Below, in pieces: positions 18,892-60,211 of a stretch of DNA of 64,000 bases. Location: NCBI GenBank assembly GCA_037141195.1, contig JBAXCZ010000008.1, forward strand, positions 2,525 through 66,524. The letters are read 5' to 3'. The position numbers were made by a program, and so were the translations under genes. Within the stretch, counting starts at the first letter, position 1. Each line of letters begins with the position of its first letter. This stretch comes from Clostridia bacterium. Its GTDB lineage: Bacteria > Bacillota > TC1 > JBAXCZ01. The notes beneath the pieces were generated by a model. That model did not search any database. It was given only the letters and a program-made list of their open reading frames with translations, and was not told the origin of the DNA.

Positions 18892-19542
18892 ATGGAATAT
18901 GGTAAGACAGTAATCGTAGATATTGTTCAGCATCAGCAACTAGCAAGTAGATTAGCAGAGTTAGGATTAGATTCAGCATTTTTTGATGAAATATTCTGGC
19001 TTGCAGGTCAAAGCGCAGCCTGGCAAAAAAAATGGCGGGAAAGCATCTGTCTGCCGAGCTTTATCCCTAGCTTTTCCTTACAGGAGGGAGAACTGTATGC
19101 TTTAGGTCTGGTAAAAAAATCTATTTTTGCCAAAGATTCTGAGCTCTTCTTTTTGGTTGGATTAGAGCAGACAATTATTGTCATGCATAATAAAAAATCA
19201 GAGCTTTTACACCTGCCTGTTTTAGCTGAGCTTGCCAGTTATGCTTTTGCGGGAGGCAAAGCAAGTGATCCTTGTGCTGGAGCAGTCAGTGCTATAAAGA
19301 AAACTCTCTTTAAGGAAGAAATATCTCAATCTCAACTAACACAGATTTACCAGAATGGTTTAATAGCAGAAAATTTACAACAAAAATTAAACTTTTTTGG
19401 AAAAATAATCACAGAATATACAGAGATGAACCTTGTAGCAGCAAGTATTAAAGATATTAAAGGCTTTAGCTTAGCTCTGAATAAAAGAGCAGATGGACAG
19501 TGCTTTGCCATGCTTTTTGCCAAGGATAACCAAAATGCTTGA
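18892..19542 (+). CDS. Hypothetical protein (weak resemblance to RACo/ASKHA middle region)
   Basis: 216-aa ORF 9 nt after tcdA, co-oriented; function uncertain. Confidence 0.6.
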   Translation: MEYGKTVIVDIVQHQQLASRLAELGLDSAFFDEIFWLAGQSAAWQKKWRESICLPSFIPSFSLQEGELYALGLVKKSIFAKDSELFFLVGLEQTIIVMHNKKSELLHLPVLAELASYAFAGGKASDPCAGAVSAIKKTLFKEEISQSQLTQIYQNGLIAENLQQKLNFFGKIITEYTEMNLVAASIKDIKGFSLALNKRADGQCFAMLFAKDNQNA

Positions 19543-19648
19543 CTAATAACTATCTTTAGCTGATTACGCTAAACTATAGCAAGAAAAACTTGTTTTTTAC
19601 CTAAATATGTTTTTGAAGAAGATTACCAAAATATATTTTTAAATACTA

Positions 19649-19677
19649 TTGACGAATTTTTATAGATATGAGATAAT
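19649..19677 (+). promoter_or_regulatory. sigma-A promoter P1 upstream of c-di-GMP-I riboswitch
   Basis: TTGACG-N17-GATAAT with TG extension. Confidence 0.6.
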
Positions 19678-19711
19678 CTAAACAAATAAATATAAGTATG
19701 TGAAATATTAA

Positions 19712-19792
19712 GACAAAGGCAAACTTGTTGAAAAGCAAGGACGCAAAGCCAAGGATCTAAGGTTGCAAAACTATGATAGCCGGCTACCGAAA
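19712..19792 (+). promoter_or_regulatory. c-di-GMP-I (GEMM) riboswitch aptamer
   Basis: AAAGGCAAAC-TTGTT-GAAA-AGCAAG-GACGCAAAGCC...TCTAAG...TATGATAGCCGGCTACCGA. G at the position equivalent to G20 favours c-di-GMP over cGAMP. Confidence 0.92.
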
Positions 19793-19814
19793 CTGTTTCA
19801 TTATGTAAGTAATG

Positions 19815-19859
19815 AGAAGCTCTCTTTGGTAGCCAAAGTGGTGCTTCTTTTTGGTTTTT
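19815..19859 (+). terminator. Expression-platform terminator of the c-di-GMP-I riboswitch
   Basis: AGAAGC..CTTTGG-TAG-CCAAAG..GCTTCT + T-run. TTTGGTAGCC (19825-34) can alternatively pair with aptamer GGCTACCGAA (19782-91). Confidence 0.7.
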
Positions 19860-19944
19860 AATCAGGATTAAGTGCTTATGGAAACAAATATGAGTACACT
19901 GGTACTGATTTCTTGAAAAACAGATATATATCTTGGGAAATCCG

Positions 19945-19973
19945 TTGACATTGCAAATAAAAGAGCATAGAAT
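19945..19973 (+). promoter_or_regulatory. sigma-A promoter P2
   Basis: TTGACA-N17-TAGAAT. Confidence 0.6.
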
Positions 19974-20179
19974 AACGAATCATAAGCTATTGTTATAAAG
20001 AAAAATTAATCATAATAGTAGTGATTCACAATTTGCTAAATAGAAAAACATTGGCGATTTTGCAAATTTAAGCCAATTAAGTTTTAAGTTGAATTATGGG
20101 GATAAATCAGATATTCACTTTTTATGTGGTCTGAAGAAGCTATGTTGTTTGATATTAATCGATACATGCACTAAATCCA

Positions 20180-20208
20180 TTGAAAGTAGTGTTATCAAGT
20201 GCTATAAT
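20180..20208 (+). promoter_or_regulatory. sigma-A promoter P3 upstream of c-di-GMP-II riboswitch / pil operon
   Basis: TTGAAA-N17-TATAAT with TG extension. Confidence 0.7.
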
Positions 20209-20237
20209 TTAAAAAGGGAAAAAAATTAAACAAAAAT

Positions 20238-20333
20238 TTTGGAGGTGCAGATACCTTAGACGTCAATTTGGACGCTTAGTCTATGGAGGAGCCAGTAGCG
20301 TAACCGGCCATCCATGGTTAGGTGCGCTTTTTT
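20238..20333 (+). promoter_or_regulatory. c-di-GMP-II riboswitch with overlapping terminator
   Basis: GG..GA kink-turn region, TAGAC/GTCTA stem, pseudoknot ACGC/GCGT (compensatory variant of the usual GCAC/GTGC), GAGCCAGTAGCGTAACCGGCC 3' motif. Hairpin 20297-20328 + T-run overlaps the aptamer 3' end. Confidence 0.8.
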
Positions 20334-20430
20334 AGCATTTAAAATCAGCAGTTAGTACCACATTAAGCAACGGATGCTTAAAGTATCTTAATAATTCATT
20401 AGCAAATTGGAGCATAAAGGCGGAATAGAC

Positions 20431-22110
20431 ATGGCAAAAGCGCGTGAGAAACTTGGTAATATTCTGCTTGCTGCAGGAAAAATAACCGAATTAGAGTTGA
20501 ATCAAGCAGTTAAAATTCAAAATGAAACTCACCAGCAACTTGGGGATGTCTTAAAAATCATGGGAGCAGTTTCCGAAAATGAAATTATTGATGTGCTAGC
20601 CGAACAGCTAGGCGTGGAAAGAGTTTTTTTAACAAAAATATACATCGATCCAATCATTGCACAATCAATCCCCAGGGAGATAGCTAAAAAATATAGTTTA
20701 ATACCAATTTACGAAAAAAATGGTCAACTTGTGGTAGCCATGAGCAACCCTATGAATATTAATGCTTTAGATGATGTGCGTTTTATCTCTCAAAAAAAGA
20801 TAATCCCAGTAATTACAGATTCCACCTCTATTGAACAAGCAATTGAAGTATATTATAGTAAACAAACTACAGATAAAGCAATTGAGGACTTGAAAAGAGA
20901 GTATAGCGAGCGTACCGGAGACAGGATTGATCAATCAGTGATTGATGAAATTCAGAATGCTCCAGCAGTGCGACTGACCAATGCTATTATCACTCAGGCA
21001 ATCACTATTCGTGCCAGTGATATTCACATTGAACCCTTCGATTCGGAAATTCTCGTACGTTACCGAATTGACGGAGTCTTGGTAGAAGGACCAAAAATCC
21101 CACCTAATCTTTATTCAGCAGTATCAACGCGGATTAAGATTATGTCAGGGATGAACATCGCAGAAAAGCGTATTCCCTTAGATGGACGCATAGAAATGGA
21201 ACAAAGTGGCAAGATTTATGACTTCCGAGTTTCTTCACTTCCAACGGTGTTTGGTGAAAAAATTGTAATCAGGATTTTAGATAGAAGTAAAGCACTCTTT
21301 AACCGAACATCTATTGGTTTTTCGGAGGAAGAGAATCACTTAATTGATAAGCTAGTAAAAGTACCGCATGGCATTATTCTCTTAACAGGTCCAACTGGTA
21401 GTGGTAAGACAACTACCCTCTATACCTTTTTAAGTGAACTTAATCAGCCGGATAGAAATATTGTTACCGTAGAAGATCCTGTGGAATATATGATGCATGG
21501 TGTCAATCAAGTGCAAGTTAATCAAAAAGCAGGTATGACCTTTGCAGTAGGGCTGAGAAGTATTTTAAGACAAGATCCAGATATTATCATGGTAGGAGAA
21601 ATTAGGGACGAGGAAACAGCCCAAATAGCTGTTCGTGCTGCTATCACAGGTCACCTAGTATTATCAACCCTCCATACTAATGATGCTCCAGGCGCAGTTA
21701 CAAGATTAGTAGATATGGGAGTTCAGCCTTATCTAGCGGCAGATGCCATGGTAGCGGTTATCGCTCAAAGGTTAGTCAGAAAGCTTTGTACAGCTTGTAA
21801 AGAAGCCTATCAGGCGGAAGAAGTAGACTTAAAAATGCTGAAAATGGAAAATTCAGTAACTCTTTACCGAGCAGTTGGCTGTCCATTATGTGGCAACACA
21901 GGCTATGCTGGCAGAACTGCAATTCATGAAATCTTAATGTTAGACAATGAAATGCGAAGCTTAATTGAAAATGGTGGCAATGCTGAACAACTAAGAAATC
22001 TTGCTTTAGCTAAAGGCATGGTTAACTTATATGAAAATTGCAAATCAATCCTACTAAAAGGAGTCACCTCAATGTACGAAATGGTGAAGACAGTTTATGC
22101 GCGAGATTAG
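20431..22110 (+). CDS. pilB: Type IV pilus assembly ATPase PilB with N-terminal MshEN-like domain
   Basis: ASDIHIEP, GPTGSGKTTT, TVEDPVEY, LRQDPD, LSTLHTN and Zn-binding CTAC/CPLC. Confidence 0.93.
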   Translation: MAKAREKLGNILLAAGKITELELNQAVKIQNETHQQLGDVLKIMGAVSENEIIDVLAEQLGVERVFLTKIYIDPIIAQSIPREIAKKYSLIPIYEKNGQLVVAMSNPMNINALDDVRFISQKKIIPVITDSTSIEQAIEVYYSKQTTDKAIEDLKREYSERTGDRIDQSVIDEIQNAPAVRLTNAIITQAITIRASDIHIEPFDSEILVRYRIDGVLVEGPKIPPNLYSAVSTRIKIMSGMNIAEKRIPLDGRIEMEQSGKIYDFRVSSLPTVFGEKIVIRILDRSKALFNRTSIGFSEEENHLIDKLVKVPHGIILLTGPTGSGKTTTLYTFLSELNQPDRNIVTVEDPVEYMMHGVNQVQVNQKAGMTFAVGLRSILRQDPDIIMVGEIRDEETAQIAVRAAITGHLVLSTLHTNDAPGAVTRLVDMGVQPYLAADAMVAVIAQRLVRKLCTACKEAYQAEEVDLKMLKMENSVTLYRAVGCPLCGNTGYAGRTAIHEILMLDNEMRSLIENGGNAEQLRNLALAKGMVNLYENCKSILLKGVTSMYEMVKTVYARD

Positions 22111-23182
22111 TTATTTTGGAATCGACCCTTTTCTCCAATATGTTTGTGATAAAAATGGAACAGATTTGCATATTAATGTGCATACCAAACCTAGAATTCG
22201 TCTTAATTCCGTTTTATGCGAAATTGAAAATGCAGAAGTCTTAAATGCAATTGATACCGAGAATATTGTGCATCAGCTCTTAGACGATGCTAAGAGCAAA
22301 TATTTAGAAGAAAATGGCGACGTGGACTTTTCCTTCTCGCGTTTTGGCTTAGGAAGATTTCGTGTGAATGTCTATAAGCAGCGTGGCACCTATTCTATTG
22401 CCGTACGGAGATTGCCCTTTGATATTCCGCCTTTTAGCGATTTGCGTTTGCCAGATGTGATTAAAAGCTTTGCCAAAAAGAACAAAGGTTTAGTTTTAGT
22501 TACAGGACCTACCGGTAGTGGAAAATCCACAACCCTAGCAAGTATGATTGATATGATTAACAAAGAGCGTAAGGCACATATCATAACCATCGAAGATCCC
22601 ATTGAGTATCTACACCAGCATAAAGAAAGCCTCATTGACCAAAGAGAAGTTGGCTCAGATACAAAATCCTTCGCCTCAGCGCTTAGGGCAACATTAAGAG
22701 AAGATCCTGATGTTATTTTAGTAGGGGAAATGAGAGATCCAGAAACTATTTCTATTGCACTAACAGCAGCAGAAACAGGGCATTTAGTGTTTTCCACCCT
22801 CCATACAATTGGAGCAGCCAAAACAGTAGATAGAATAATTGACTCTTTCCCACCTAACCAACAAAATCAAATAAAAAGCCAACTAGCAACAGTGCTTGAA
22901 GGGGTGGTATCTCAGCACCTTATCCCCAAGATGAACGGTAAGGGAATCGTTGCAGCTAGTGAAGTGATGGTAGTAAATTCAGCTATTCGGAATTTGATTC
23001 GGGAAGGAAAATCCTTTCAAATTAATAGCGTTATCCAAACTAGTGCCAATGTAGGCATGCAGACCATGGATACAAGTCTTGCCCAGCTTTATACCTCAGG
23101 TGTTATTGCCCAAGAAGAAGCTGTTGCAAGAGCACAAGACCCTAAAATATTTTCCCAATTAAGTAATACAAGGTGGAGTTAG
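22097..23182 (+). CDS. pilT: Type IV pilus retraction ATPase PilT
   Basis: GPTGSGKSTT, TIEDPIEY, LREDPDVILVGEMRD, AIRNLIRE and GMQTMD. Confidence 0.95.
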   Translation: MREISYFGIDPFLQYVCDKNGTDLHINVHTKPRIRLNSVLCEIENAEVLNAIDTENIVHQLLDDAKSKYLEENGDVDFSFSRFGLGRFRVNVYKQRGTYSIAVRRLPFDIPPFSDLRLPDVIKSFAKKNKGLVLVTGPTGSGKSTTLASMIDMINKERKAHIITIEDPIEYLHQHKESLIDQREVGSDTKSFASALRATLREDPDVILVGEMRDPETISIALTAAETGHLVFSTLHTIGAAKTVDRIIDSFPPNQQNQIKSQLATVLEGVVSQHLIPKMNGKGIVAASEVMVVNSAIRNLIREGKSFQINSVIQTSANVGMQTMDTSLAQLYTSGVIAQEEAVARAQDPKIFSQLSNTRWS

Positions 23183-23183
23183 C

Positions 23184-24386
23184 ATGGCGACATATGTCTA
23201 TAAAGCAAAAAACTTAAAAGGTGAAGAATTGGCTGGCACCTTCGATGGTGTCTCAACGGAAGCTTTAGAGCTGATGCTAAAGGAAAAAGGTTATTTTATC
23301 GTTAAAGCAAGCAAACAAAGCCCCCAGATATCCTTGGGAAATTTCTTTGGTAAAATTACTGTTAAGCAATTAGCAGTATTTTGTAGGCAATTTTCCGTAC
23401 TAATTAATGCAGGTGTAACCATTGTGGAAGCTGTAGGTATCCTGCGTGAACAGATGGACAATAAGCAGCTACAAAAGGTTTTAGGGGAAATGCATGAGGA
23501 GTTACAAAAAGGCCGCGTGCTTTCTGAATCCATGAGTGGCTTTCCGGAAGCCTTTCCAGATTTTATGATGAATATGATTAAAGTGGGAGAAGCCAGCGGC
23601 TCGTTAGATACAATTCTCAATAGGCTAGCAGATTTTTATGAAAATGATGCACGTATTCGCCGCAAGGTGAAGGAGGCAATGACCTATCCTATCATCTTAG
23701 CAGTCATGACAGTAGGGGTAGTAATCCTACTTTTAGTGAAGATTATCCCCATGTTTTCTGGTATTCTCAGTGAGCTAGGAGGACAGTTGCCCCTGATAAC
23801 AAAAATTTTAGTAGGGTTAAGTAATTTTCTCACAAGCAACTTCTTAATACTGACTTTAATCATTGTAGGACTTGTAGTAGGTTTTAATGCTTGGAAAAGA
23901 ACCGAATCAGGCACCTTAGAAATGGACCGCTTAATCTTACGGCTACCAGTAATTAGTGGCTTAACCAAAAAGGTTATTACAGCTCGCTTTGCCCGTAGCT
24001 TAGCAGTGCTATTGCAGAGTGGGATAGCTATTATCGAATCTATGGACATTATCAGTGACTTGATTGGCAATAAAGCCATTGAAGAAAAATTTGTGGCTTG
24101 TCAAGAGGAAATAAGAGAAGGCAAAGGGATTTCAGAACCATTGAAAAACATCAACATTTTCCCCCCACTCCTAATCCATATGGTGGCAGTGGGAGAATCT
24201 ACTGGGGAGCTAGATGATATGCTCTTTAGGACAGCCGGTTTCTTCGATGATGAGGTAGAGGAAGCAATTGTGCGAATGACTACCCTCATTGAGCCAGCTA
24301 TGATAGTAATTATGGCAGCAGTGGTTGGGATAGTAATCTTATCAGTAATGCTGCCAATGATTTCAGTCTTAAATGCGGTACAATAA
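23184..24386 (+). CDS. pilC: Type IV pilus platform protein PilC (T2SS F family)
   Basis: FCRQFSVLINAG, GEASGSLD, AMTYP, GESTGELD and LIEP. Confidence 0.93.
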   Translation: MATYVYKAKNLKGEELAGTFDGVSTEALELMLKEKGYFIVKASKQSPQISLGNFFGKITVKQLAVFCRQFSVLINAGVTIVEAVGILREQMDNKQLQKVLGEMHEELQKGRVLSESMSGFPEAFPDFMMNMIKVGEASGSLDTILNRLADFYENDARIRRKVKEAMTYPIILAVMTVGVVILLLVKIIPMFSGILSELGGQLPLITKILVGLSNFLTSNFLILTLIIVGLVVGFNAWKRTESGTLEMDRLILRLPVISGLTKKVITARFARSLAVLLQSGIAIIESMDIISDLIGNKAIEEKFVACQEEIREGKGISEPLKNINIFPPLLIHMVAVGESTGELDDMLFRTAGFFDDEVEEAIVRMTTLIEPAMIVIMAAVVGIVILSVMLPMISVLNAVQ

Positions 24387-24450
24387 GTAAACAAGAAGCT
24401 ATGCTCTTGCCTACTATTGATATAAAAAAAATAATGAAAAGAGGATGAGA

Positions 24451-24903
24451 ATGATGAAAAAAATCAAAAATCAACAAGGCTTTACACTAATCGAATTGAT
24501 TATTGTAATTGCTGTCATCGCAATTCTAGCGGCAGTATTATTACCAAGGTTCTTAGGCTTTACAGAGGATGCTAAATTTAGTGCAGCAAAATCCGATGCC
24601 AAAAATCTTGCGACTGCAGTAGAGGCAATAAAGGCTCAGAACTATACATTTAGTGCAACAGATACAACAGCTGATAATACTATTTGTGGACCTGGAGAAG
24701 CTATGGGTTACGTTGGTAAGCAATTGCCAGGAAGTTTAGCATTTACTGTTGCAAGTGGAGATATAACAAGTTTTCTTTATACAAGGAATAATGGTACAAG
24801 TGCTTATCCTGTGACATATACTCTGAGTACAGGTTTAATAACCTTAGGAACTGTTTCTCCAACTAATGTTTCTGAAACCGCAATTCTAATTCAGAAGCCT
24901 TAA
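24451..24903 (+). CDS. pilA: Major type IV pilin
   Basis: Class III signal QQG|FTLIELIIVIAVIAILAAVLLP; followed by a strong hairpin. Start may be 24445, 24451 or 24454. Confidence 0.85.
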   Translation: MMKKIKNQQGFTLIELIIVIAVIAILAAVLLPRFLGFTEDAKFSAAKSDAKNLATAVEAIKAQNYTFSATDTTADNTICGPGEAMGYVGKQLPGSLAFTVASGDITSFLYTRNNGTSAYPVTYTLSTGLITLGTVSPTNVSETAILIQKP

Positions 24904-24993: not shown

Positions 24994-25338
24994 ATGAAAA
25001 ATAAAGGCTTTACCTTGATTGAAATGATTATTATTATTACAGTCATCGGTATTATGGTTTCTGTAGCAGTGCCTAGCTTAAGGGATTATCGAGTCAGACA
25101 AATAGAGGCTGATAGAGCAGTGCAAGAACAGGTGCTGAACAAATCACTACGTCAGTATTATGCATTAGAAGGGCACTATCCGAGTAAAACAAGTTTTCTC
25201 TCTGGAGGAGCACTCAATGTAGTAGCTTTTGCTCAGGAAATGGCTAAAAAAACAGGTACTATCGTTAATACTAATGATTATCTTATTGATTATATTCAAA
25301 CAACCACTGAAATTGCAGTTACTGTAGCATTAAAGTGA
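24994..25338 (+). CDS. Minor type IV pilin
   Basis: KG|FTLIEMIIII prepilin motif; YYALEGHYP. Confidence 0.85.
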   Translation: MKNKGFTLIEMIIIITVIGIMVSVAVPSLRDYRVRQIEADRAVQEQVLNKSLRQYYALEGHYPSKTSFLSGGALNVVAFAQEMAKKTGTIVNTNDYLIDYIQTTTEIAVTVALK

Positions 25339-25363
25339 AAAAAGTGAGCGAGGATGATGCTCC

Positions 25364-25912
25364 ATGAAAAAAGAAAATTTCGTGTTATGTCCAGCAAAAG
25401 CTAAAAAGAACTTCATAGGTGGCTTCTCTTTAATAGAAACACTTATTGTGATGGCGATGCTAGCTCTTTTAGGCACGGTGCTAGTTTCCTTAGTAGCTTC
25501 TGGTGGCAAGCAGTTTCAACATCTCCAAAAAAACTATCAATCAGAAAATGAAGCGCGTATTGCGCTATCCTATATTACGGTCAAAATTAGACAAAATGAT
25601 GTTGTCTTAACAGGTGATATTAGAGGAGTACAAATTATTGGGACTGAACTCCAAATCTACCGGCCTGTGTCTGATGATGGCTATTGGCGAATATACTATA
25701 ATTCTACCAGTGGAGAGCTGAGAGAAAAGCTCTTTGCACATAATGGTGATTTACTTCCAATAAGCGATAGTTTAATTTCAGAAGGCTTAAGTGGAATAGC
25801 ACTAGATTACGATCTTGCTAGTCAAATACTCTCTGTAGCTATTAGCTATCAGTCGGATATTGGAGAAAGAACTTTAAGTGAGCAGGTTCACCTGCGCTCT
25901 GAATTGGAGTAA
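25364..25912 (+). CDS. Minor type IV pilin (PilW/J-like)
   Basis: GG|FSLIETLIVM prepilin motif; RIALSYITVKIRQND. Confidence 0.8.
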   Translation: MKKENFVLCPAKAKKNFIGGFSLIETLIVMAMLALLGTVLVSLVASGGKQFQHLQKNYQSENEARIALSYITVKIRQNDVVLTGDIRGVQIIGTELQIYRPVSDDGYWRIYYNSTSGELREKLFAHNGDLLPISDSLISEGLSGIALDYDLASQILSVAISYQSDIGERTLSEQVHLRSELE

Positions 25913-25938
25913 GGCAAAAAAAGTCAGGAGGATTTTCC

Positions 25939-27438
25939 ATGAGCGTATTAGGCATTGACATTGGCATTCACCATATTAAAGTGGTAGAGGCAAAACAAAA
26001 CAAAAAAAACACACCTATTAAAGCCTATTTATTAGACACACCACTAGGTGCAGTGCAGGGTGGAGAAATTAAAGATGTGCAGGCAATTGGAGCCTTACTG
26101 AGAGCTTTAATCGCTAAGCATGATATTAGAGCAAAAGAACTCTATTTTGCTATCAATTCGCCAAAAATGCTTAATCGTGATATTAGTCTTCCTCCGATGA
26201 AGGCTGAAGAGGTGGAGGCTGCCGTAGATTTTGATATCTCCCAGTCTTTCCCAGGTATTTTGCAAACTCATTTTATTAGCTATTTGCTTTATTCCAAATT
26301 AAAACAACCTTTAAATGGTGTTGCTGTTTTTTGTCCATCACGCATTGTGGAAAGCTACCAACAGCTAGCAGTGCAAATTGGAGTGCCAATTGCCAGAATT
26401 GATGCAGGTTTTAATGCCGCTACGAGAGCACTTTATCAATTTACCCAACCAGATAAAAATGAAGAAACTGTGATGCTTGCAGACATTGATGTAGAAAGTG
26501 CGCAAATCACCCTCATTGCCCGTGGAAAGATTCTCTTTAGTAGGCATACTGAGTTAACCTTACCTCAGATTTCTGAAGCAGAGGCAACAGAAGAGCAGTT
26601 TGCTGAAATTCTTAAACAAAAACACATGGCAGTGTTAGAGCAAATAAGACAAACCCTAGATTTTTATCATTTCAATAATAAGCAATCAGACAATGTGGCA
26701 AAAATATTTTTAACAGGCGAAAGTAGTAGAGAAACAGGTCTTGCAGATTATCTTGCTAATGCTTTAGCCGTTCCTGTGCAAAATGTTGGTAGTCTGGTGA
26801 AAAATCTTGATGATTTGCAAGGTGATTTATATCTTAGCGCAGCAGGGGCACTGCTCCAAAGCAAGCAGTTTACTGTGGACATTAATCTTTTACCTCTACA
26901 AGGCAATAAAGAGGGGCAAAGGAGTAAGGCTAAGTATCAAGCAATAGCTTTTGCAACTGTAGGTGGTTTTTTACTCGTCTTTGCCTTGTGTTATGGCTTG
27001 CTCTTGTTTGGGAGCATGACGGAAACTAACCGCAAAGCAGATTTGCAAGCTGAGATGAAAACATACTCTGCTTTAGATGAGGTTAAATTAGCTACTACAG
27101 CGGCAAAAAATCGTACTGCTAGTATCCAGCAGGTGAGTCAGACTGCCGAAGCCCAGTCTTTAATGAATATTAAACTTCTTAATAATTTAGCTAAGGTGAT
27201 GCCGGAGGGAATATTCGTGCAGACTTTCTCGGTGGATAGTGGTAATCGCATAGCACTTTTAGGCTCTGCTCAAACTCGTAAGGATATTGCAGAATTTGTC
27301 AATCGCTTAAGAAGTATTCCAGGATTTACGGAAATTTCTGTAGGTAGCATTAATACAAGCCAGTTTGCTGATGGTACAATTAAAGATTTTAGTTTTAATA
27401 TGAATATTACTATGGATCGGCAGGTGACAGGGGAATGA
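25939..27438 (+). CDS. Fused PilM-PilN alignment protein
   Basis: Actin-like N-terminus LGIDIG..IKVV and IFLTGE; then the PilN signature INLLP, a TM helix and a PilN-type C-domain. Confidence 0.8.
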   Translation: MSVLGIDIGIHHIKVVEAKQNKKNTPIKAYLLDTPLGAVQGGEIKDVQAIGALLRALIAKHDIRAKELYFAINSPKMLNRDISLPPMKAEEVEAAVDFDISQSFPGILQTHFISYLLYSKLKQPLNGVAVFCPSRIVESYQQLAVQIGVPIARIDAGFNAATRALYQFTQPDKNEETVMLADIDVESAQITLIARGKILFSRHTELTLPQISEAEATEEQFAEILKQKHMAVLEQIRQTLDFYHFNNKQSDNVAKIFLTGESSRETGLADYLANALAVPVQNVGSLVKNLDDLQGDLYLSAAGALLQSKQFTVDINLLPLQGNKEGQRSKAKYQAIAFATVGGFLLVFALCYGLLLFGSMTETNRKADLQAEMKTYSALDEVKLATTAAKNRTASIQQVSQTAEAQSLMNIKLLNNLAKVMPEGIFVQTFSVDSGNRIALLGSAQTRKDIAEFVNRLRSIPGFTEISVGSINTSQFADGTIKDFSFNMNITMDRQVTGE

Positions 27439-28619
27439 AAACTAATACCTCAGAAAAAAGTATAACCAGCCGAGTTTCTGGTCGTGAATTGATTTTGCTA
27501 GCTGCTTTTTTAGTATTTTTAGAGTTATACTTCTTGTTTTTTCAAATTCTTGTGCCTAAATATCAGGATTATCAAGCTCAGAGAACTATCAATACAGCTC
27601 TTAGCCAAACAGTAGCAGATCTCAAAGTGGAGTTTGGTAAGATGGATCAATATTTGGCTACATTAGCTACAGCTCAAGAAGAAGAACAAGTGATGAAGTC
27701 GATGATACCTCCATATACGGCTCATGAAGAAGTAATCTTGTTTTTAGATAAACTACTAACAGATGCTCAGTTGATGGTTAATGTAATATCTTTTGATACA
27801 CTTACAACTGTGGAACAAGGGGTGTTTTTAACACCAACTCCAGAGCAACAGGCTGCAACTTCAACTGAGGCGGCTACTGCTGTAGCTCCTGTTGTTGCTC
27901 CTACTGGGACAGGCTACTTGGTAGCAGACCAAGAAATGAGTCTGAGTTTTTCCGGTAGCTATGGTTCGATTTATAGCTTTTTGAATCTTTTAGAAACCAG
28001 CAATAGAAAAGCTTTTGTGAAAAGCCTTTCCTTGTCTGCTGATGAGAAGGGAATGCTAACTGGCAACATGAATATTTCCATGTTAAGCCTAGTAGATGCA
28101 GCAAAAATGGAGCAATATAAACTGGATTTAGCAGCCATCGCTGGTAAAGATTCACCTTTTACACCGTATCAAGGATATGGGGTAAGTAAAGATTCAGCTA
28201 CCCCAGTTGCAGCACTTTTAATTCCAGATTTTACCATGCTCCTCAATACCTACTTAGATAATGCACCTAAGGTTATTCTCAGTGATTATCAAAGTGCTGC
28301 TGCTCAACTTACGGCAGATGCAAACCGTAGCTTTGCTGCACGGTTGAGCTTAAATAGAAGTGGTAGCGGCTATAGTTATACGATGTCGTTAGACGGGAAG
28401 AATCTCTCTTCTGCTGCACCGCTTACAGTACGCAACGGTAGAATAGTATTAGAGGTAATTTCTCAAACTCGCAGCAGTAACAAAGATTTAGCAGGAGCAA
28501 CTTTAGATATTATTAATAACACTAATGTTCCCATGCGGGTGGTAGTAACCAAAGATGATGCAAATATTCCTCGCTTTAAGCTAGGCAACATCAGCGGGGA
28601 TGTAAAGATAGGATTGTGA
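27435..28619 (+). CDS. PilO-like alignment protein with C-terminal extension
   Basis: REL+TM, coiled coil, SFSGSYGSIYSFLNLLETSNR. Confidence 0.72.
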   Translation: MKTNTSEKSITSRVSGRELILLAAFLVFLELYFLFFQILVPKYQDYQAQRTINTALSQTVADLKVEFGKMDQYLATLATAQEEEQVMKSMIPPYTAHEEVILFLDKLLTDAQLMVNVISFDTLTTVEQGVFLTPTPEQQAATSTEAATAVAPVVAPTGTGYLVADQEMSLSFSGSYGSIYSFLNLLETSNRKAFVKSLSLSADEKGMLTGNMNISMLSLVDAAKMEQYKLDLAAIAGKDSPFTPYQGYGVSKDSATPVAALLIPDFTMLLNTYLDNAPKVILSDYQSAAAQLTADANRSFAARLSLNRSGSGYSYTMSLDGKNLSSAAPLTVRNGRIVLEVISQTRSSNKDLAGATLDIINNTNVPMRVVVTKDDANIPRFKLGNISGDVKIGL

Positions 28620-29419
28620 TGAAAATGAAAAACGGGCAAAAGGGCTTTACCCTAATTGAAGTTGCCATTGCTTTTGCGGTTTTGGCTTTAGTTTCTGGTA
28701 CTCTTTTGCAGATGTTTATTGTTTCTGCTAAGGTAAATCATCAAGCCTACGAAATTGATAAAGCTAATGCGCTTGCTGTGAAAATTCAGGAAGTTTTCAA
28801 GGAAAATCCTGGGCAGGTAGATGTTATTGCAGAACTAGTAGGCGCAACTAAATCAACTAATGCTACAACTACAGCTATTAGTGCTTATTTAGATAAGAAT
28901 TGGCAAGCAACAGCTACTACTGCAACAGCTTTCTATCAAGTGGATTTGGTGGTAGCTACAACTGGAACAAGTGTCCTAGAAAATAGCGGTTATTTCCCAG
29001 CTAATGGAGAAATTTGGAATTTAACTGCAGATACAGTCTATAATTTGCAAATAGTGCAAAATACAAGTAACAGTGGACTACTTGTAGTGCAATTACCCAA
29101 TGGTTTGCCAGCTCAGCAAATAAATATTGCTGTAGGAACACCAATTATCATAGGTAATAATGGGACTCCAATTGTGAATCATACAGATATAACTATCAGT
29201 AATAACTCGGATATTCCTGTAGACATCTACGTATTAGATGCGGCAACTACAACAAGCGTATCAATTATAGTAGCACAAGGAATTTGCAATTATTCTATCC
29301 TACCATCCAGGTCGGTTGAGATAAAAAATCAATTAATACAATTAATTATCAACAGAATGTCTGATGGAATGCTTTTAGCAACCAGTACAGGTTCTGCCTA
29401 CGGGTCCACACATCCATAA
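28616..29419 (+). CDS. Minor type IV pilin (PilV-like)
   Basis: QKG|FTLIEVAIAFAVL. Confidence 0.82.
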   Translation: MMKMKNGQKGFTLIEVAIAFAVLALVSGTLLQMFIVSAKVNHQAYEIDKANALAVKIQEVFKENPGQVDVIAELVGATKSTNATTTAISAYLDKNWQATATTATAFYQVDLVVATTGTSVLENSGYFPANGEIWNLTADTVYNLQIVQNTSNSGLLVVQLPNGLPAQQINIAVGTPIIIGNNGTPIVNHTDITISNNSDIPVDIYVLDAATTTSVSIIVAQGICNYSILPSRSVEIKNQLIQLIINRMSDGMLLATSTGSAYGSTHP

Positions 29420-29438
29420 GGAAAGGGAGTGAGAGTTG

Positions 29439-31751
29439 ATGAAAGAGCAAAATATTAGTAACAATAGTTTTTGGAAGATTTTTAAGAACGAGAAAGGCAA
29501 TGCTACTATTATGGTGCTAAGTGTCATTCTCATCCTCACAGCTTTTGGTACGGTATCACTTTTTGCTTCACTAGCAAATGTAAAAATGGGTAGCCGTTAT
29601 CGGGTTTGGAGTACGGGTTATTACAATGTAGATACTGTTGCTGAGGAGAAAATCATCCAAGTTGATGAAGTTTTAAGACAGGCTGAGGATACTACGAATT
29701 TTTATATGACAGGCAAGTATTATAATGAAAGTGATTATGGAGTAATTTTAAGCAATCCTAGATTTGTTAATATTACTAGTAATGCTCAAGCTCTTTTTTA
29801 TGCCAATAGATGGACCTGGAGCTTGGCTTCTTACCTTGTCGCCTATCCTACATTAAGTGAGTCGGATTATCAGACAGCAATGTTAGCTCATAATACACAG
29901 CTCTATGAAAAAATTTATCTATATCTAGCCAATAATTTATTATCTTCTGCCTTTGTTCTAACCACAGACGATATCGAATTTACTGAAGTACCTGTATTCA
30001 AGATACCTGTGGGTACTCTTTGGTCAGATTTAGTATACGAACCAACAGACTGGCAAGTGCTAATAACTGCAAAAGCTACTCTTGCAGGAGGCGAAACAAG
30101 AAAACTTCGTGTTGAACTTCAGGTGAAGCCTCCAGATAATCAAGCCGTAGTTCAAGTAATTAGCCAACCATTAAGGAGCAATCCACTTTGGGGTTATGCA
30201 CTAGCTGCAGAGGGCTCTATTAACTTTACAGCTGGGGCTACAGTCTATGGTGATGTCTATGCTAATAGTGGTACAAATGGTGGAGTAAAAGCATCTAATA
30301 GCGCTAATGTAGATTTGTATGGCAATCTTTATACGAGTGGTGATTTATCAGCAACGACAAATTCTAGCTTAACAGTGCATAAATATAACAGTACAGTAGC
30401 CTATCCTAGCAATTTTAGTTCTGCCTATGGTAATAAAACAAAAATATATAGTGAAACTAACGCCTTGGCACCTAATTTATTTATGGAAACATCTAATAAT
30501 TCTTTGTATGAGTCTGGCTTTGTGAATTATACAGAAGGTACAATCGCTACCACAGGACTTCTTCCTTTCTTTTATCAAGATAAGAACTGGGGAAATGTCT
30601 ACTGTAACAACCTGCAAGTTGGTGATGGCATAACAAATGCGCATCTAACAGTTGGCGGAATTGTGCAAACCAAAGATGATGTTGAGATGAATGGTGATAA
30701 TTCGAGCATTTCCATTATTGGCAATTTTTTAGGTATCACCTCTGATGCAAACGAAGCTGTTCGTGATCCTAATGCCTCTAGCTCCATTATCAATAATAAA
30801 CCACTTAATGCTTTGCAAAATCCTAATAGCAGTATTAATTTAGGTGGTGGCATGATTGTTCCTGGTATCGCCTTTGGTGAGTACGATTCAAGTGAGGAAA
30901 CCGGTACCTTTGCTAAATATTACATGACGGCTGAATCTGTATCAGCGAGGATTTATGATACTTTTGCAGCTTATCTCTATCCGGAAAATATTTCGCCAGC
31001 AGCTGTAAGCTATGGTTCAATCATCTACGAAAAGGATGGTTCCCAATATTTTTTGAAAAAATTCGCTTCTAACGCATATACAGAAAAACTTGCAGATTTT
31101 GTTAGTTCGGTCACCAGCGGTGGAATTAATAGCAGAATTTATGTTCAGCCGGTTGGTAATCTAGATGGCTATGCATTAGGTGTTATAGTGCCAAATCAAA
31201 CTGGAATAATTAACCCCATCAGTGATATTGCCTCTTATAATGCTAACCAAAGTGCTTACGGTGCAACTAAAGCTAAATTAACCAATAGCTTTATTGCGAA
31301 GACAGAGCATTTTGGGTTAAGTGGAACAAAATTGATGGCTAATTTAGTAAATACTGCTGCAGGAAATGGGCTAGGTGTACTTAGTACAGACCCTAATAAC
31401 CCAAGAGCTTTTTATAGGTCAGGCAACTATACATTGAATCTTAGTGGCCCTACAAGTGGAATAATTTATTGTGGAGGAGATTTAACTATCTCCGGAAGTG
31501 GAAGCTTTAGTGGAGTTATTTTATGTGAAGGTGACATCACGGTAACAAGTAATAATGTTACAATTTACTATAATGAAACAGTGATTGAAGCTGTGCTTTC
31601 AAGACCTAGAAATATTCTCGACCGCGCATTTTTTGCACCAGGTGCTATATACGGAGCAGATTATACCCGCTACGAAGATTATGGTACAGATAGCGGAACA
31701 AAGACGGAAATGAAACGTTATCGTGTGATTAGTTGGCAGGAGGGGATGTAA
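29439..31751 (+). CDS. Large PilX/PilK-like minor pilin
   Basis: NEKG|NATIMVL.. (no Glu5), large C-domain with GxIxxxGD/I beta-helix-like repeats and terminal SWQE. Confidence 0.7.
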   Translation: MKEQNISNNSFWKIFKNEKGNATIMVLSVILILTAFGTVSLFASLANVKMGSRYRVWSTGYYNVDTVAEEKIIQVDEVLRQAEDTTNFYMTGKYYNESDYGVILSNPRFVNITSNAQALFYANRWTWSLASYLVAYPTLSESDYQTAMLAHNTQLYEKIYLYLANNLLSSAFVLTTDDIEFTEVPVFKIPVGTLWSDLVYEPTDWQVLITAKATLAGGETRKLRVELQVKPPDNQAVVQVISQPLRSNPLWGYALAAEGSINFTAGATVYGDVYANSGTNGGVKASNSANVDLYGNLYTSGDLSATTNSSLTVHKYNSTVAYPSNFSSAYGNKTKIYSETNALAPNLFMETSNNSLYESGFVNYTEGTIATTGLLPFFYQDKNWGNVYCNNLQVGDGITNAHLTVGGIVQTKDDVEMNGDNSSISIIGNFLGITSDANEAVRDPNASSSIINNKPLNALQNPNSSINLGGGMIVPGIAFGEYDSSEETGTFAKYYMTAESVSARIYDTFAAYLYPENISPAAVSYGSIIYEKDGSQYFLKKFASNAYTEKLADFVSSVTSGGINSRIYVQPVGNLDGYALGVIVPNQTGIINPISDIASYNANQSAYGATKAKLTNSFIAKTEHFGLSGTKLMANLVNTAAGNGLGVLSTDPNNPRAFYRSGNYTLNLSGPTSGIIYCGGDLTISGSGSFSGVILCEGDITVTSNNVTIYYNETVIEAVLSRPRNILDRAFFAPGAIYGADYTRYEDYGTDSGTKTEMKRYRVISWQEGM

Positions 31752-31814
31752 AATGCATAGTTTTACTGTAATAACTGATTTTTACCAAATGTGTTATCTA
31801 AGGGAGGGATTAAG

Positions 31815-34800
31815 ATGAAAAAACAAGTGAATAAAACACTTTCACTACTGATTGTACTTTCGTTATTGGTTTCCATGTTTTCAGGGTTAATAGTTAGTGC
31901 AGCAACTATTTCAAACCCTAGTTTTATTACATTTAGTCCATCTAGTTTTGAAGAAGCAATAGCAAATGATGGAAGCATTAGTAATAGCCCAGTAACTATA
32001 AATATTACATCTGGTACTATTAGGAGCGCGTCAAGATTAACAACATACTCAACTGTTACAGCTCCCAATGGTATTGTTGCGACTTTAACATATATAAATT
32101 CTACATCGGCGCAGCTTTCTCTTTCTGGAAAAGCTGTTAATAATACAAGTGGAGTCCAAAATGTTGCTGTAAGATTTAATTCTGGTATGCTTAAGGACAG
32201 TAATGGAAATAATCGAACTGATGACTATACATTTAATGTACCCATTAATTTTTATGATGCACCAAACTTAACATATAATGGTAACATCTTTACTGAGGCC
32301 TTGGCAAATGATGGTTCATTTGATGCCACTAATCCAATTGCAGCTAATATTGTTGGAAACCCTGCAGTACAGTTTAAAACTGGCAATTTTGTAAACGGAA
32401 CTGACTATTCTGTTGCAAATATTCCTGCTGGATTAACTGTTGTGTTAACTAGAGTTAATTCTCAAAAAGTGAATATAACTTTATCCGGAAATGCAACTAA
32501 CCATACCTACGCTAATGATGTTAATAATGCTACCATTATATTTAATAATTCTGCATTCTCAACTGGTGGCAGTACAATGCAAAATAAAAACTTTGTTTTT
32601 TCCATTGAATTTTTGAATTATCCTAATTTAGATTTTAGTAGTAGCAGTTTTACCGAGACTGATGCTAATAATGGATCGTTTGATGTCAATGCTCCAATTT
32701 CAGTAACTATTTTAGGGACTTCTGCTGTTAAATTCAAAACTGGTACTTTTACTCGTGGTACCGATTTTTCTACAACAAATATCCCTGCAGGACTTAATGT
32801 TACTATAACTAGAATAAATGATAAAGAAGTTGCCATGAAAATTAGTGGAAACGCTACGAATCATGCTCAAAGCAATAGTATTAATAATGCTTCAATTACC
32901 TTTAATGCTGTAGCATTTTCTCCAAATAGTGTTGTTTTGAATAATGCTTTAACTTTTGGTATTCAATTTATAGATATTGCTTTAAGCTATGTTGGAAATA
33001 GCTTCTCAGAGGCTGCCGCTAATGATGGAGCTATTGATGCTAATTCAAAAATCATAGCTAGTATTGATGGAAGTGCTACTCTCAAGTTTAAAACTGGAAC
33101 TCTAATTCCAAGTACAGACTATACTGTTGTTGGATTACCTACAGGTTTAAGTGCTGTAGTCAGCAGTGACAATGGTTCTGAGGCAATTATCACATTAAGT
33201 GGCAAGGCAAGTGCCCATTTAGCTGCTAATAGTGTTGCGAATGCAACTATTACTTTTAAGTCTACCGCATTTTCTCCAGCAAGCAATAATCTTACAAATT
33301 TAGTTCAAGCATTTTCAGTGAATTTTAATGATCCTGGTAAGATTACCGCCGACACAAATGCTTTTGTAGAGTCAGATAGTAATGATGGATCTATTGCAGG
33401 ACAAAGAGCGATATTACTTACTAATGCAAGCTTTGTAGATGTGCCCTTTGTCTCCACTACATATTATGCTATCACCGGAGTACCAGCAGGTCTAACTGCA
33501 AAGGTTACTCGTGAATCAGCAAATAGACTTGGACTATCCTTTGAAGGAAAGGCTACAACGCATGCGAGCATCAACAGTGCTAATGTGACTTTAACGTTGA
33601 AGGATGCTGCTTTTATTAGTGGAGCGTCGCAAATAACAGGCAAAATACAAAATTTCCAGCTTAACTTTGCTGATAATACTCCAATTAGGGTGCTTGAGGT
33701 TTATCCTAGCAGTGTTACTAGCACCGGAGATGGAAATTTTAGAGATGCTGTTACACAGTTAACCGCATCTAACTATGTAGTTACTTCTATTACCATGAAT
33801 CGATTTATCTCAATTATTGATGATGTTAACGGAAATTATGATGTTGTTTATTTTGGTCGAGGCCGTTATATGAAAGGCAGCCCATCGGACAGCTATTTTG
33901 GTAATGATATTACTTCAAAAGCTGCCGTTAAGGTTCTGGAATTTATTAATTCCGGGCAACTTTGTATCTTCCACACTGATGCGCTTACATCTAATACAAT
34001 TATTTCAGGTCTGCCAACATCAATAATGCAATCAAAATTCAATGTGGCAGCAGTAACTGGTAAAGCTAATGTGAAAACCGTATCTGGTACAAATCCAGCT
34101 TTAGCCACTACTATTACAAATGGTCTTGCTGCTAGTACAACAAATAGAAGACCTATTATGGATATGGTTGAGAATCCTTATTCTTACAGAGCTTTAGGTA
34201 CAGCTTTCGATAGTAGTACCTTGAAATTTACACTACGGGCTACGGATAAAGAAAGCGCAACATTAGCTGCAATTCTCTATATAGATAAGAACAATGATGG
34301 GCTCTTCTCAACTACTGAGGCTGTTGATAGACACACGGTAAATAAGGATATGTTTGACAGTTTTAGTTACCGTATGCCAAATGGATTAACGGGAGTTTAT
34401 TTTTGGAAGCTAGAGTTAAAAGATGCTAGTGGAGCTAAGGATAGCTTTACTGATGTATTTTATCTTAAAGGTGATGAAGTACAGATTAATGTGCTCCAGG
34501 TTATTCCAACCGGTAATAATTTAGACTTATCAGTTAAACTAAATGATCTTGTTAGTGGAACAACTGACAAGCTTGGAACTAAAGCTGGAGAGTATAAAAT
34601 TAATGTGACAAAAGTTACGATTGACAGCTTTAATAATCCACCAGCCAATGATACTTTGGGATTAATGAATCTTAATGGTAATTATAATATGATAATCTTG
34701 GGATTTGCCGATGAATATGGTCTTGCAGATTTAGATGCAGATGCTAGTACTAGACTTCAAAGCTTTATTAATACTGGGCAAAGTGTAATGTTTACCCATG

Positions 34801-36872
34801 ATACTATCGAATATAGCGGGTATAGAAGTTCTAATCTTTTAACTAATTTTCGTAGTGTTGTTGGACAAACAAATCAATTAACAGCGACACAACTGGTGAG
34901 AAACAACTCTAGTGATACAGTTGTTACAAATTTTGGCTTAAATAACACAGCTACGAATAATATGTATAGTAAACTTATGCCAAATAATCCAGGTGCTGTT
35001 TTAGTAAAACAGGTTAACTCTACGGCGCTTACGCTGTATCCGTTTAATTTGGAAGTAATTCCACAAAATAGTATGAGTGTGGCAAATACACACTACCAAT
35101 ACTATAAATTAGATCTTGAGGATCCAACAATTATTCCAGTGTACAATTATTATGCTGATGTTAGTGGTCGTTTATTAGATGATTCGATGAACAATTATTA
35201 TACATATTCTAAAGGAACTATTACTTATTCTGGAACAGGGCACTCTAACAATTATCCAGAATTTGAGCTTAAGCTTTTTGTTAATACAATCCTTAAAGCA
35301 TATGCTGGAGCAAACCATGCTCCAACTTTAGAAGTATCTCAGCCACTTAACAATGCAAAGCTAGACTTAAATACTTCTAGTGTTGCACTTTCTTTCCGTG
35401 GCTATGATTATGATTTTGATGATGATATTCTCTATTACAAGGTTTACTTGGATAATGGTAGTGGTACATACGTATTGCAAGGTAGTGAGACTCAAATGAA
35501 CAATGGTCAAACTATCAATCTCTCTATTCCTAAAGGTTTTAGCGATGCGAGAACATTTAAGCTAAAGGTTGAATTAAGAGATAAACCAACAGCTCAAAAT
35601 GGTGCAATGACCTTTACCGAATTAACGCTTTATAATACAGAGTTGCCATTATTAACTCCTATTATTACAACTGATAAAACGGCATATCTAGTAGGAGAAT
35701 CAATTAATGCAACTGTTACACTACAACCAAGTGGTAAGGTGACACCTAATGTTACTATTACTCCTTCAACTCTTAAGCTTACTGTTCCTACTGGTTTAGG
35801 AGGAGCTACTACTAACTTTACAACTGTGGGAGGATTTATCTTTGGTAGTACAGGTCCAATCTCAGCTGCATACCTAGCCAACAAGGCAATCTTAGCTGCT
35901 TTACCTGCAGGTGTTGCTCTAGCCAACTACACGCTACAAGCAGAGTGCAACTACAGTCTCTACGGAGCTTCAGTACAGCAGTTAGCTAGTAAAAATATTA
36001 CTGTTAAAAATGGTACTGTTGAGCTTTGGGTTAAAGATGATCAAGGAAATCCACTGAAGGATGTAAATGTTAGTGATTATGCTATTGCTACAGGCATGAA
36101 AACCAATGCAGGGGGTAGATACCTCTTCGAAGGTGTTTCAGCAGGTAGTCATAATTATAGAATTGCGATGCCTAAAGGCTATGCTCTTGATAAAGTTTTG
36201 GTGAATAAAAAAGGTGGAGCAGTAATTACTTATACAGATCCTGAGGCTGCAATACTAGCCATGAGCGCTACTAACTCTGAGTGGGAAGTCACCTATGTAC
36301 TTAAGTTTGGAACGGCAATAGAGGTGGTTTACTTAAATGTTCGAGCTGATAAATCTTTAGCAGCAATCCCTGCTCCAGGTGGTATCTATACATTAAGAGT
36401 TGCAAAGAAATCTAAGGTATCTATTGTTGCTTTCTTCCAGATTCCTGATGTTGAAAGTACCAATGTTAATACTGTACAGCTTACTATGCATACGAAGCTG
36501 ATGGATGGAACGGAAACCTACTATACACAAGATAGTGATAGTGCGATACTAACTATTCCAGGTTCGAGCACTCCAGTAACTTTAGTTGCTAGCAATCCAC
36601 GAATTGGTGGAGCAATTACTGATAAGAGTAAGTGGGCAACACCAGGAGCAATATATATGGATTTGTTTAATAACAATCCAACTGCTGGGTTCACTTACGC
36701 TGGCGCTACTAAATGGTATTATACAGTGATTGTGATTGAACCAACTGAAAATCAACAATTCCGAATTGATAAGATTAAGCTTGTGATGGATAATGGATCA
36801 CTATATGCGATTCCAAATAGCAATGCACAGCTTATCAATATTATGGAGCTTTTACCACCAGTACTTAGATAA
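31815..36872 (+). CDS. Large secreted repeat protein with two DUF5057-like domains; putative pilus-associated adhesin
   Basis: Sec signal peptide (MKKQ...VSA), five ~118-aa FxExxxNDG repeats, RVLEVYP..YDVVYFG and NVLQVIP..YNMIILGFAD..VMFTHDT domains; last gene before the terminator of the pil operon. Confidence 0.65.
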   Translation: MKKQVNKTLSLLIVLSLLVSMFSGLIVSAATISNPSFITFSPSSFEEAIANDGSISNSPVTINITSGTIRSASRLTTYSTVTAPNGIVATLTYINSTSAQLSLSGKAVNNTSGVQNVAVRFNSGMLKDSNGNNRTDDYTFNVPINFYDAPNLTYNGNIFTEALANDGSFDATNPIAANIVGNPAVQFKTGNFVNGTDYSVANIPAGLTVVLTRVNSQKVNITLSGNATNHTYANDVNNATIIFNNSAFSTGGSTMQNKNFVFSIEFLNYPNLDFSSSSFTETDANNGSFDVNAPISVTILGTSAVKFKTGTFTRGTDFSTTNIPAGLNVTITRINDKEVAMKISGNATNHAQSNSINNASITFNAVAFSPNSVVLNNALTFGIQFIDIALSYVGNSFSEAAANDGAIDANSKIIASIDGSATLKFKTGTLIPSTDYTVVGLPTGLSAVVSSDNGSEAIITLSGKASAHLAANSVANATITFKSTAFSPASNNLTNLVQAFSVNFNDPGKITADTNAFVESDSNDGSIAGQRAILLTNASFVDVPFVSTTYYAITGVPAGLTAKVTRESANRLGLSFEGKATTHASINSANVTLTLKDAAFISGASQITGKIQNFQLNFADNTPIRVLEVYPSSVTSTGDGNFRDAVTQLTASNYVVTSITMNRFISIIDDVNGNYDVVYFGRGRYMKGSPSDSYFGNDITSKAAVKVLEFINSGQLCIFHTDALTSNTIISGLPTSIMQSKFNVAAVTGKANVKTVSGTNPALATTITNGLAASTTNRRPIMDMVENPYSYRALGTAFDSSTLKFTLRATDKESATLAAILYIDKNNDGLFSTTEAVDRHTVNKDMFDSFSYRMPNGLTGVYFWKLELKDASGAKDSFTDVFYLKGDEVQINVLQVIPTGNNLDLSVKLNDLVSGTTDKLGTKAGEYKINVTKVTIDSFNNPPANDTLGLMNLNGNYNMIILGFADEYGLADLDADASTRLQSFINTGQSVMFTHDTIEYSGYRSSNLLTNFRSVVGQTNQLTATQLVRNNSSDTVVTNFGLNNTATNNMYSKLMPNNPGAVLVKQVNSTALTLYPFNLEVIPQNSMSVANTHYQYYKLDLEDPTIIPVYNYYADVSGRLLDDSMNNYYTYSKGTITYSGTGHSNNYPEFELKLFVNTILKAYAGANHAPTLEVSQPLNNAKLDLNTSSVALSFRGYDYDFDDDILYYKVYLDNGSGTYVLQGSETQMNNGQTINLSIPKGFSDARTFKLKVELRDKPTAQNGAMTFTELTLYNTELPLLTPIITTDKTAYLVGESINATVTLQPSGKVTPNVTITPSTLKLTVPTGLGGATTNFTTVGGFIFGSTGPISAAYLANKAILAALPAGVALANYTLQAECNYSLYGASVQQLASKNITVKNGTVELWVKDDQGNPLKDVNVSDYAIATGMKTNAGGRYLFEGVSAGSHNYRIAMPKGYALDKVLVNKKGGAVITYTDPEAAILAMSATNSEWEVTYVLKFGTAIEVVYLNVRADKSLAAIPAPGGIYTLRVAKKSKVSIVAFFQIPDVESTNVNTVQLTMHTKLMDGTETYYTQDSDSAILTIPGSSTPVTLVASNPRIGGAITDKSKWATPGAIYMDLFNNNPTAGFTYAGATKWYYTVIVIEPTENQQFRIDKIKLVMDNGSLYAIPNSNAQLINIMELLPPVLR
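31947..33670 (+). repeat. Five tandem ~118-aa Ig-like protein repeats
   Basis: Units start at 31947, 32289, 32649, 33003 and 33363: F(E/T/S/V)E(A/T/S)xxN(D/N)G...P(A/T/N)G(L/I)...(L/I/F)(S/E)G(K/N)A. Confidence 0.85.
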
Positions 36873-52595: not shown

Positions 52596-52671
52596 AGGGG
52601 AGTAGCTCAAATGGTAGAGTAGTGGTCTCCAAAACCATTGGTCGCAGGTTCGACCCCTGTCTCCCCTGCCA
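52596..52671 (+). tRNA. tRNA-Trp (CCA)
   Basis: 76-nt cloverleaf AGGGGAG.../CTCCCCT-G-CCA, anticodon loop CTCCAAA, T-loop GTTCGAC. Confidence 0.96.
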
Positions 52672-60113: not shown

Positions 60114-60211
60114 TGGCGGGAGTACATGCGAATCGAACACACCCACGACAGGATCGCTGCCGCACAGCCAGATTTGAAGTCTGCGTGAGCCACCAGGCCC
60201 AATCTACCCCC
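60114..60211 (-). tRNA. selC: tRNA-Sec (UCA)
   Basis: - strand: GGGGGTAG acceptor, 6-bp D-stem TGGGCC-TGGT-GGCTCA, anticodon loop CTTCAAA, long variable arm GCGGCAG/CTGTCGT, TTCGATT, G discriminator + CCA; 98 nt. Confidence 0.93.

Follow-up and report, generated by a model that had tools for sequence, protein, structure and literature searches.

In Clostridioides difficile, c-di-GMP riboswitches of class I act as OFF switches and those of class II as ON switches (PMC6200980, PMC6366702, excerpts). As is predicted for the locus described here, the class II element Cdi-2-4 at pilA1/pilB is an ON switch that controls termination 5′ of type IV pilus genes (PMC6200980, PMC6366702, excerpts), and the reference of an earlier note on this DNA to such a pilus switch agrees with these sources. 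In the window, i.e. the whole stretch of 64,000 nucleotides that was analysed, the class II element differs from Cdi-2-4 in that it stands directly before pilB, scores below the Rfam cut-off and has a class I element and two more promoters upstream. Both classes also occur side by side in C. difficile, where the class II ON switch of the adhesin CD2831 lies beside the class I OFF switch of the protease zmpI/PPEP-1 (PMC6200980, PMC6366702, excerpts); each of those switches owns a gene, whereas class I in the window has none. A class I doublet is described ahead of transglutaminase-like genes of COG1305 (PMC12452182, excerpt). In contrast to that cassette, the gene is missing in the window and class II comes next.

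Tandem arrangements are well represented, with 347 class I doublets, 59 class II doublets and bi-mechanism pairs of SAM-II/SAM-V listed in the available part of PMC9481103. As in the same-class tandems, one leader of the window holds more than one complete switch for the same ligand; unlike these, which act in one direction with a steeper response, it combines two classes with predicted opposite directions. Compared to the pseudo-cooperative tandem of the same excerpt (PMC9481103), the two complete switches and the gene-free leader are present and the directions are predicted to be opposed, and the different ligands of its two-input logic gate are not found either, as both pockets here belong to the c-di-GMP type. 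Tables 1 and 2 of PMC9481103, in the form available, contain no pair of class I with class II. All one-ligand tandems that we found described act in one direction. Bc3-5 is reportedly a triplet of c-di-GMP riboswitches of the same class. Neither a mixed class I/class II tandem nor a natural band-pass riboswitch was found in the literature searched, though the tables of PMC12452182, seen as an excerpt, pool both classes and may hold unremarked cases. Each part of the locus is of a known kind, while the OFF-then-ON combination of class I and class II was not found described in that literature.

The sequence belongs to the 2.2-Mb assembly of an uncultured member of the Bacillota, the only genome in its family, whose DNA occurs in freshwater runs. 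Genome-wide, 5 class I matches, 2 class II matches and 15 GGDEF domains were counted. The parts of the leader and of the pilus operon all lie on the plus strand. A gene-free leader (19543-20430) extends from the end of a 216-aa gene (18892-19542), which belongs to no Pfam family and whose thiolase matches are weak and partial, to the start of pilB at 20431. No open reading frame of more than 46 codons lies wholly within it, and no Shine-Dalgarno match of more than 4 nt precedes any plus-strand frame of at least 10 codons. The pilB frame itself can be extended into the leader by a TTG at 20407. The description in the earlier note of an ORF-free leader of about 890 bp with sigma-A promoters at 19649, 19945 and 20180 was thus recovered in full, with a longest inner frame of 46 codons, and so was its view that the class I switch has no gene of its own.

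The three sigma-A-like promoters are predicted from consensus matches. P1 (19649..19677; 10/12, extended −10 with TG) has its predicted start at about 19684, P2 (19945..19973; 11/12) lies downstream of class I and P3 (20180..20208; 11/12, extended −10 with TG) directly 5′ of class II, P2 and P3 being closer to the consensus than P1. With all promoter-like sites counted, the leader holds 8 compared to 5.4 ± 2.3 in shuffled sequences, which is no clear excess. The intergenic background of the genome amounts to 0.73 sites of at least 10/12 per 890 nt on one strand, and three such sites on one strand occur in 4 of its 68 intergenic regions of at least 500 nt. The AT-rich spacer between the class I terminator and P3 (19859..20179) is devoid of a credible reading frame, a stable fold (z-scores from −1.7 to +0.8), a transglutaminase remnant among the tblastn matches listed and a detectable terminator. 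It showed no Rfam match near any cut-off and matched the DNA of none of 40 other genomes; leader matches to 40 relatives were confined to the aptamers and pilB. In its length, its c-di-GMP riboswitch and its several promoters the leader resembles that of cmrRST in C. difficile (bioRxiv 10.1101/2021.10.06.463453, excerpt), which in contrast contains an invertible DNA element. The window leader has a single perfect 11-bp inverted repeat, no more than chance would give (275 of 500 shuffles), and 19687-20693 reads the same in a DNA contig of a second sample. At 19574, just 5′ of P1, one second-sample DNA contig diverges, either as a strain variant or as a chimera.

The class I aptamer, placed by the earlier note at 19712-19792, matched RF01051 at 19708..19791 with 84.1 bits, well over the gathering cut-off of 35. 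Class I aptamers of the cGAMP-variant type carry A where the c-di-GMP type has G20. The pocket found here has G20 (G19718) together with A19745 and C19787/8, corresponding to A47 and C92 in the numbering mapped in this analysis. The roles of these three residues follow PMC3764141 (excerpt). Directly behind the aptamer a competing expression platform is predicted. Without ligand, TTTGGTAGCC (19825-19834) pairs with the 3′ end of the aptamer (19782-19791) at a probability of 0.82-0.97 in folding, giving an antiterminator at 19782..19834 with a predicted −22.1 kcal/mol. A complement of this kind arises in 33 of 5000 shuffles. The antiterminator takes up the 5′ arm and the loop of the terminator, the pairs of which then form at a probability of at most 0.03. 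Once the aptamer helices are enforced, the terminator hairpin (19814..19858, −16.0 kcal/mol, interrupted U tract) folds. Class I is thereby predicted to be a transcriptional OFF switch, and the OFF logic that the earlier note derived from a terminator complementary to the aptamer end gained support from folding and from the C. difficile precedent.

For class II the covariance check recommended in the earlier note turned out otherwise. The element that had been located at 20241-20309 extends over 20232..20318 and matched RF01786 with 44.8 bits (E 2.2e-8) compared to a gathering score of 53.5; a curated Rfam search thus misses it, and we file it as class II-type, not as a member of RF01786. The bit loss is due to a P1 helix of only 3 bp and to a changed pseudoknot, and P3 contains one U-U mismatch. 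The aptamer is nevertheless regarded as real. All 7 of 7 pseudoknot pairs (20270-20276 with 20297-20305) can form, the GA letters of the kink-turn are present, and the pseudoknot change is compensatory, the same type being the commonest, with 7 cases, among 49 class II elements that were aligned. In this set the pseudoknot cells are paired to 99.4% and 4 of 7 pairs covary, statistics that are partly circular since the members were chosen by the Rfam model. Residues A20243, A20294, A20302, A20303 and G20306, mapped here to A13, A61, A69, A70 and G73, carry the majority letters of the alignment. The ligand contacts A69, A70 and G73, with A61 and A13, are taken from PMC13715770 (excerpt). The class II terminator (20271..20333) is predicted as a long (about 20275-20322) or a short (20298-20327) ligand-free hairpin ending at or just before a U6 run (20328-20333). 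In folding both hairpins use the 3′ half of the aptamer, as the earlier note had suggested, including the pseudoknot strand and pocket residues; in line with C. difficile this would make class II an ON switch by termination.

Behind the leader follow pilB with an MshEN domain (20431..22110, ribosome site 20416-20423), pilT and pilC (22097..24386), a major pilin candidate (24445..24903), over which an RNA-run contig reaches a depth of 19.5, and, likely in the same operon, minor pilins, a pilM-like gene, more pilus genes and a 1693-aa DUF5057 protein (24994..36872). With PilB, PilT, PilC, PilM and pilins bearing the type IV signal, a type IVa pilus operon is recognised; the PilT and pilin N-terminal models passed their cut-offs, while PilB, PilC and PilM gave strong matches below the equivalog cut-offs. 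PilB (20431-20625) also passes the model of a c-di-GMP-binding motif with 51.1 vs 38 bits, and its repeats read KLG and QLG compared to RLG in close homologues. The arginine of RLG has a role in c-di-GMP binding by this motif, so that binding may be weakened here. A second pilus cluster of this genome carries a class I aptamer (C10:57661-57744, L005) ahead of its leading pilin gene, and the two pilus systems may thus answer c-di-GMP differently. A third pilus-like cluster with pilC-like, pilin and pilT-like genes (C17:30064-36689) lies near a transglutaminase gene that has no switch. The other class II element of the genome (C27:18495-18579, L002; 44 bits) is followed by a 1311-aa PAS hybrid histidine kinase, which is uncommon as a class II target. 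Elsewhere in the window lie a selenocysteine tRNA (60118-60211, minus strand) and an ordinary tRNA (52596-52668).

The switch logic is derived from equilibrium folds. A strict terminator scan returned 0 hairpins and missed both class I and class II, the stems of which are bulged, so that the efficiency of termination is uncertain. Only P1 transcripts have both switches in series, as P2 and P3 start 3′ of class I. Since every transcript passes class II and those from P2 and P3 bypass class I, the operon as a whole is likely under an ON switch. At low c-di-GMP, P1 transcripts would pass class I and halt at class II alongside those from P2 and P3; at middle levels pilB could be transcribed from all three promoters; high levels would end P1 transcripts at about 174 nt and let P2/P3 transcripts continue. 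The pilB output would then be an ON curve with a boost in the middle range, short of a full band-pass. A simple product model, the constants of which are invented, gives a peak over the high-signal level of at most 10-fold for P1 alone, at most 2.8-fold if P2 and P3 together reach a quarter of P1 and at most 1.55-fold if they equal it. A true band-pass would therefore require that P1 dominates over P2/P3, and the band-pass gate considered in the earlier note holds for P1 transcripts only, fading in the model once P2 and P3 together match P1. Two short RNA-run contigs with a depth of 2.7-3.3 extend across the U tract of class I (19814-19975) and the start of P3 (20094-20261); they are unstranded, stem from one study and may originate from DNA. 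As to whether one transcript spans the leader, these low-depth contigs bridge parts of it only, and two inner promoters are present. Over 19.9 kb, 2 of 7 RNA-run contigs fall into the leader; as the runs were available as contigs only, missing cover over pilB and pilT carries no weight.

We lean towards the interpretation that the pilus operon is switched ON via class II and that class I is an intact OFF switch left behind by a lost transglutaminase-like gene. Class II stands directly 5′ of pilB elsewhere in the phylum, too (7 of 70 locus records in a sample of 151 genomes, one contig-end match left out), and in the Clostridium order (2 of 124 records from 144 genomes, without the weakest matches and 7 unscored genomes). 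No class I was found within 1.6-2.0 kb upstream of the former, nor in the upstream DNA examined at the latter, with an nhmmer profile that we built from 22 sequences and that distant members may escape. This recurrence without class I speaks for the leftover. The nearest pilB genes occur at 11 loci outside this order with 63-66% identity, full-length matches within the order reaching at most 49%. No riboswitch lies within 1.5 kb of the pilB homologues of the order. Metagenome loci offered no closer comparison, with nothing above 57% identity and no riboswitch. Nine of the ten closest loci with upstream DNA have one or two class I elements, a transglutaminase-like gene (PF01841) and then pilB, and class II was found at none of the ten. 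At one of the nine, in genome G262, the transglutaminase gene shows an internal shortening that leaves about 150 codons. Outside the order, class I upstream of class II occurred at three places (G138, G201, G250) among 221 class II locus records, 213 of them with at least 600 nt upstream and some overlapping, and each time a transglutaminase gene lies between, resembling the CD2831-zmpI/PPEP-1 arrangement. The first class I elements of G138 and G201 have, by inspection, the same antiterminator design as the window. At L308 (G201:C72) a class I doublet and a transglutaminase gene are followed by two class II elements in series, apparently with their own promoters.

These loci make a loss from a cassette of class I, transglutaminase and class II or pilB the simplest origin, and by comparison the class I-transglutaminase cassette is the likely source of the extra switch. 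In the genome studied here the transglutaminase gene lies on another contig (C17) without a switch, whereas all four orthologues in the sister family f2 keep class I arrays, which also argues for the loss. The flattened model peak at equal promoter strength and the OFF and ON directions known from C. difficile (PMC6200980, PMC6366702, excerpts) speak for the reading as a whole. Among the four ideas of the earlier note, that of a deleted-gene relic has the best comparative support. Against it, no transglutaminase remnant appeared in the spacer among the tblastn matches listed (best E 0.05), and aptamer, platform and promoter of class I are all intact, which is unexpected of a long-dead relic. 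Class I of the window is only 55-63% identical to the aligned pilB-adjacent elements and has a different platform. Furthermore, the nine pilB loci form one family and do not count independently, and L056, with 66% pilB identity, has neither switch nor transglutaminase gene upstream. In a tree of 21 transglutaminases with little resolution overall, the gene of this genome is sister to that of G250 (92/93, long branches) and is not placed among the pilB-adjacent ones.

A further argument against the lost gene comes from a survey of 15 genomes of the order. In family f2 we found gene-free arrays of one or two class I elements, a spacer of 165-300 nt and two class II elements ahead of a surface-protein gene in G003, G005 (twice) and G007 (L043:4296-4711; L044:4557-5201; L045:9802-10482, minus strand; L046:1-355). 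The targets are of the LPxTG type in the three intact copies, one G005 gene being frameshifted, and class I of G007 is truncated where the contig begins, so that only the 3′ end and the U tract identify it. A U tract directly 3′ of the class I P1 helix suggests an OFF switch. In each of the three copies that were folded, the 3′ strand of the second class II makes a hairpin that covers the ribosome site and has a stem varying from copy to copy, which points to translational ON control. All three complete copies have a strong promoter 5′ of class I, and the spacers score 7-8/12 in three of four cases, the exception being G003 with a perfect extended −10. The spacers share a motif ending in a Shine-Dalgarno-like run, and in G007 a short reading frame follows it and reads into the first class II. 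Four class I aptamers precede a transglutaminase gene in G007 (L046:1707-2340), directly 3′ of the class II-controlled LPxTG gene and beside a sortase. The arrays span two genera, and the transglutaminase of the family retains its own class I array; they probably share one origin, separate from that of the window stack. Their persistence means that mixed stacks need not be relics. As grounds for abandoning the proposal the earlier note had named a failure of either element in covariance scoring or binding and a gene between the switches in relatives that explains class I; class II does score below the cut-off and relatives do have a gene after class I, but the gene-free arrays recur as well.

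The f2 arrays fit a band-pass better than the window leader does and would respond only at middle c-di-GMP. That the window leader, too, was selected as a band-pass, with P1 as the principal promoter under some circumstances, class II opening at less c-di-GMP than is needed to close class I, pili made mainly at middle levels and the history of gene loss secondary, appears doubtful to us, although it is the most serious of the alternatives. It is favoured by the intact class I parts, by the two short RNA-run contigs, according to which upstream transcripts may reach class II, and by the arrays before LPxTG genes with at most 8/12 in three of four spacers. On the other hand, P2 and P3 are closer to the consensus than P1 and bypass class I, and the model demands that together they stay well below P1 and that class II opens no later than class I closes. 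The contigs concerned are shallow and possibly DNA, the G003 spacer has its perfect extended −10, and as the only genome of its family this one has no close relative in which conservation could be seen.

It is improbable that P1 and class I serve to make a non-coding RNA of about 650 nt or to occlude P2/P3 at low c-di-GMP and so sharpen the OFF state. A 649-nt RNA does follow from the predicted logic, and the two RNA-run contigs in the leader are compatible with it, but the spacer holds no structured RNA, near-cut-off Rfam match or DNA match in the 40 genomes, and interference would add little because class II already halts P2/P3 transcripts at low signal. Very unlikely is an unrecognised small protein in the spacer under class I control: 58-aa proteins follow five C. 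difficile class I switches, two of them previously without a coding sequence (PMC13724677, excerpt), but no counterpart occurs in the window, where the first frames past the terminator have 12-14 codons and a 4-nt ribosome-site match and the longest, with 46 codons, overlaps P3 and has a match of 3 nt. Just as little is to be said for a class II element that is degenerate or made for another cyclic dinucleotide, which would undo the one-ligand OFF/ON pair; its low score, short P1 and U-U mismatch are outweighed by the five majority-letter pocket residues, the common and covarying pseudoknot, albeit from a model-selected set, and the 15 GGDEF domains.

If the OFF-then-ON stack indeed responds to one messenger in this way, it would represent a natural RNA circuit of a new kind. 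Rather speculatively, the order may then have built a one-ligand band-pass twice, in the pilus leader and in the LPxTG arrays of family f2, so that attachment structures would be made only at middle c-di-GMP. The plainer reading is that such stacks can arise by losing the gene between two neighbouring cassettes. The stack gives a direct route to asking whether cells read middle c-di-GMP as a state of its own, and the f2 arrays are short and suited to a laboratory reporter strain.
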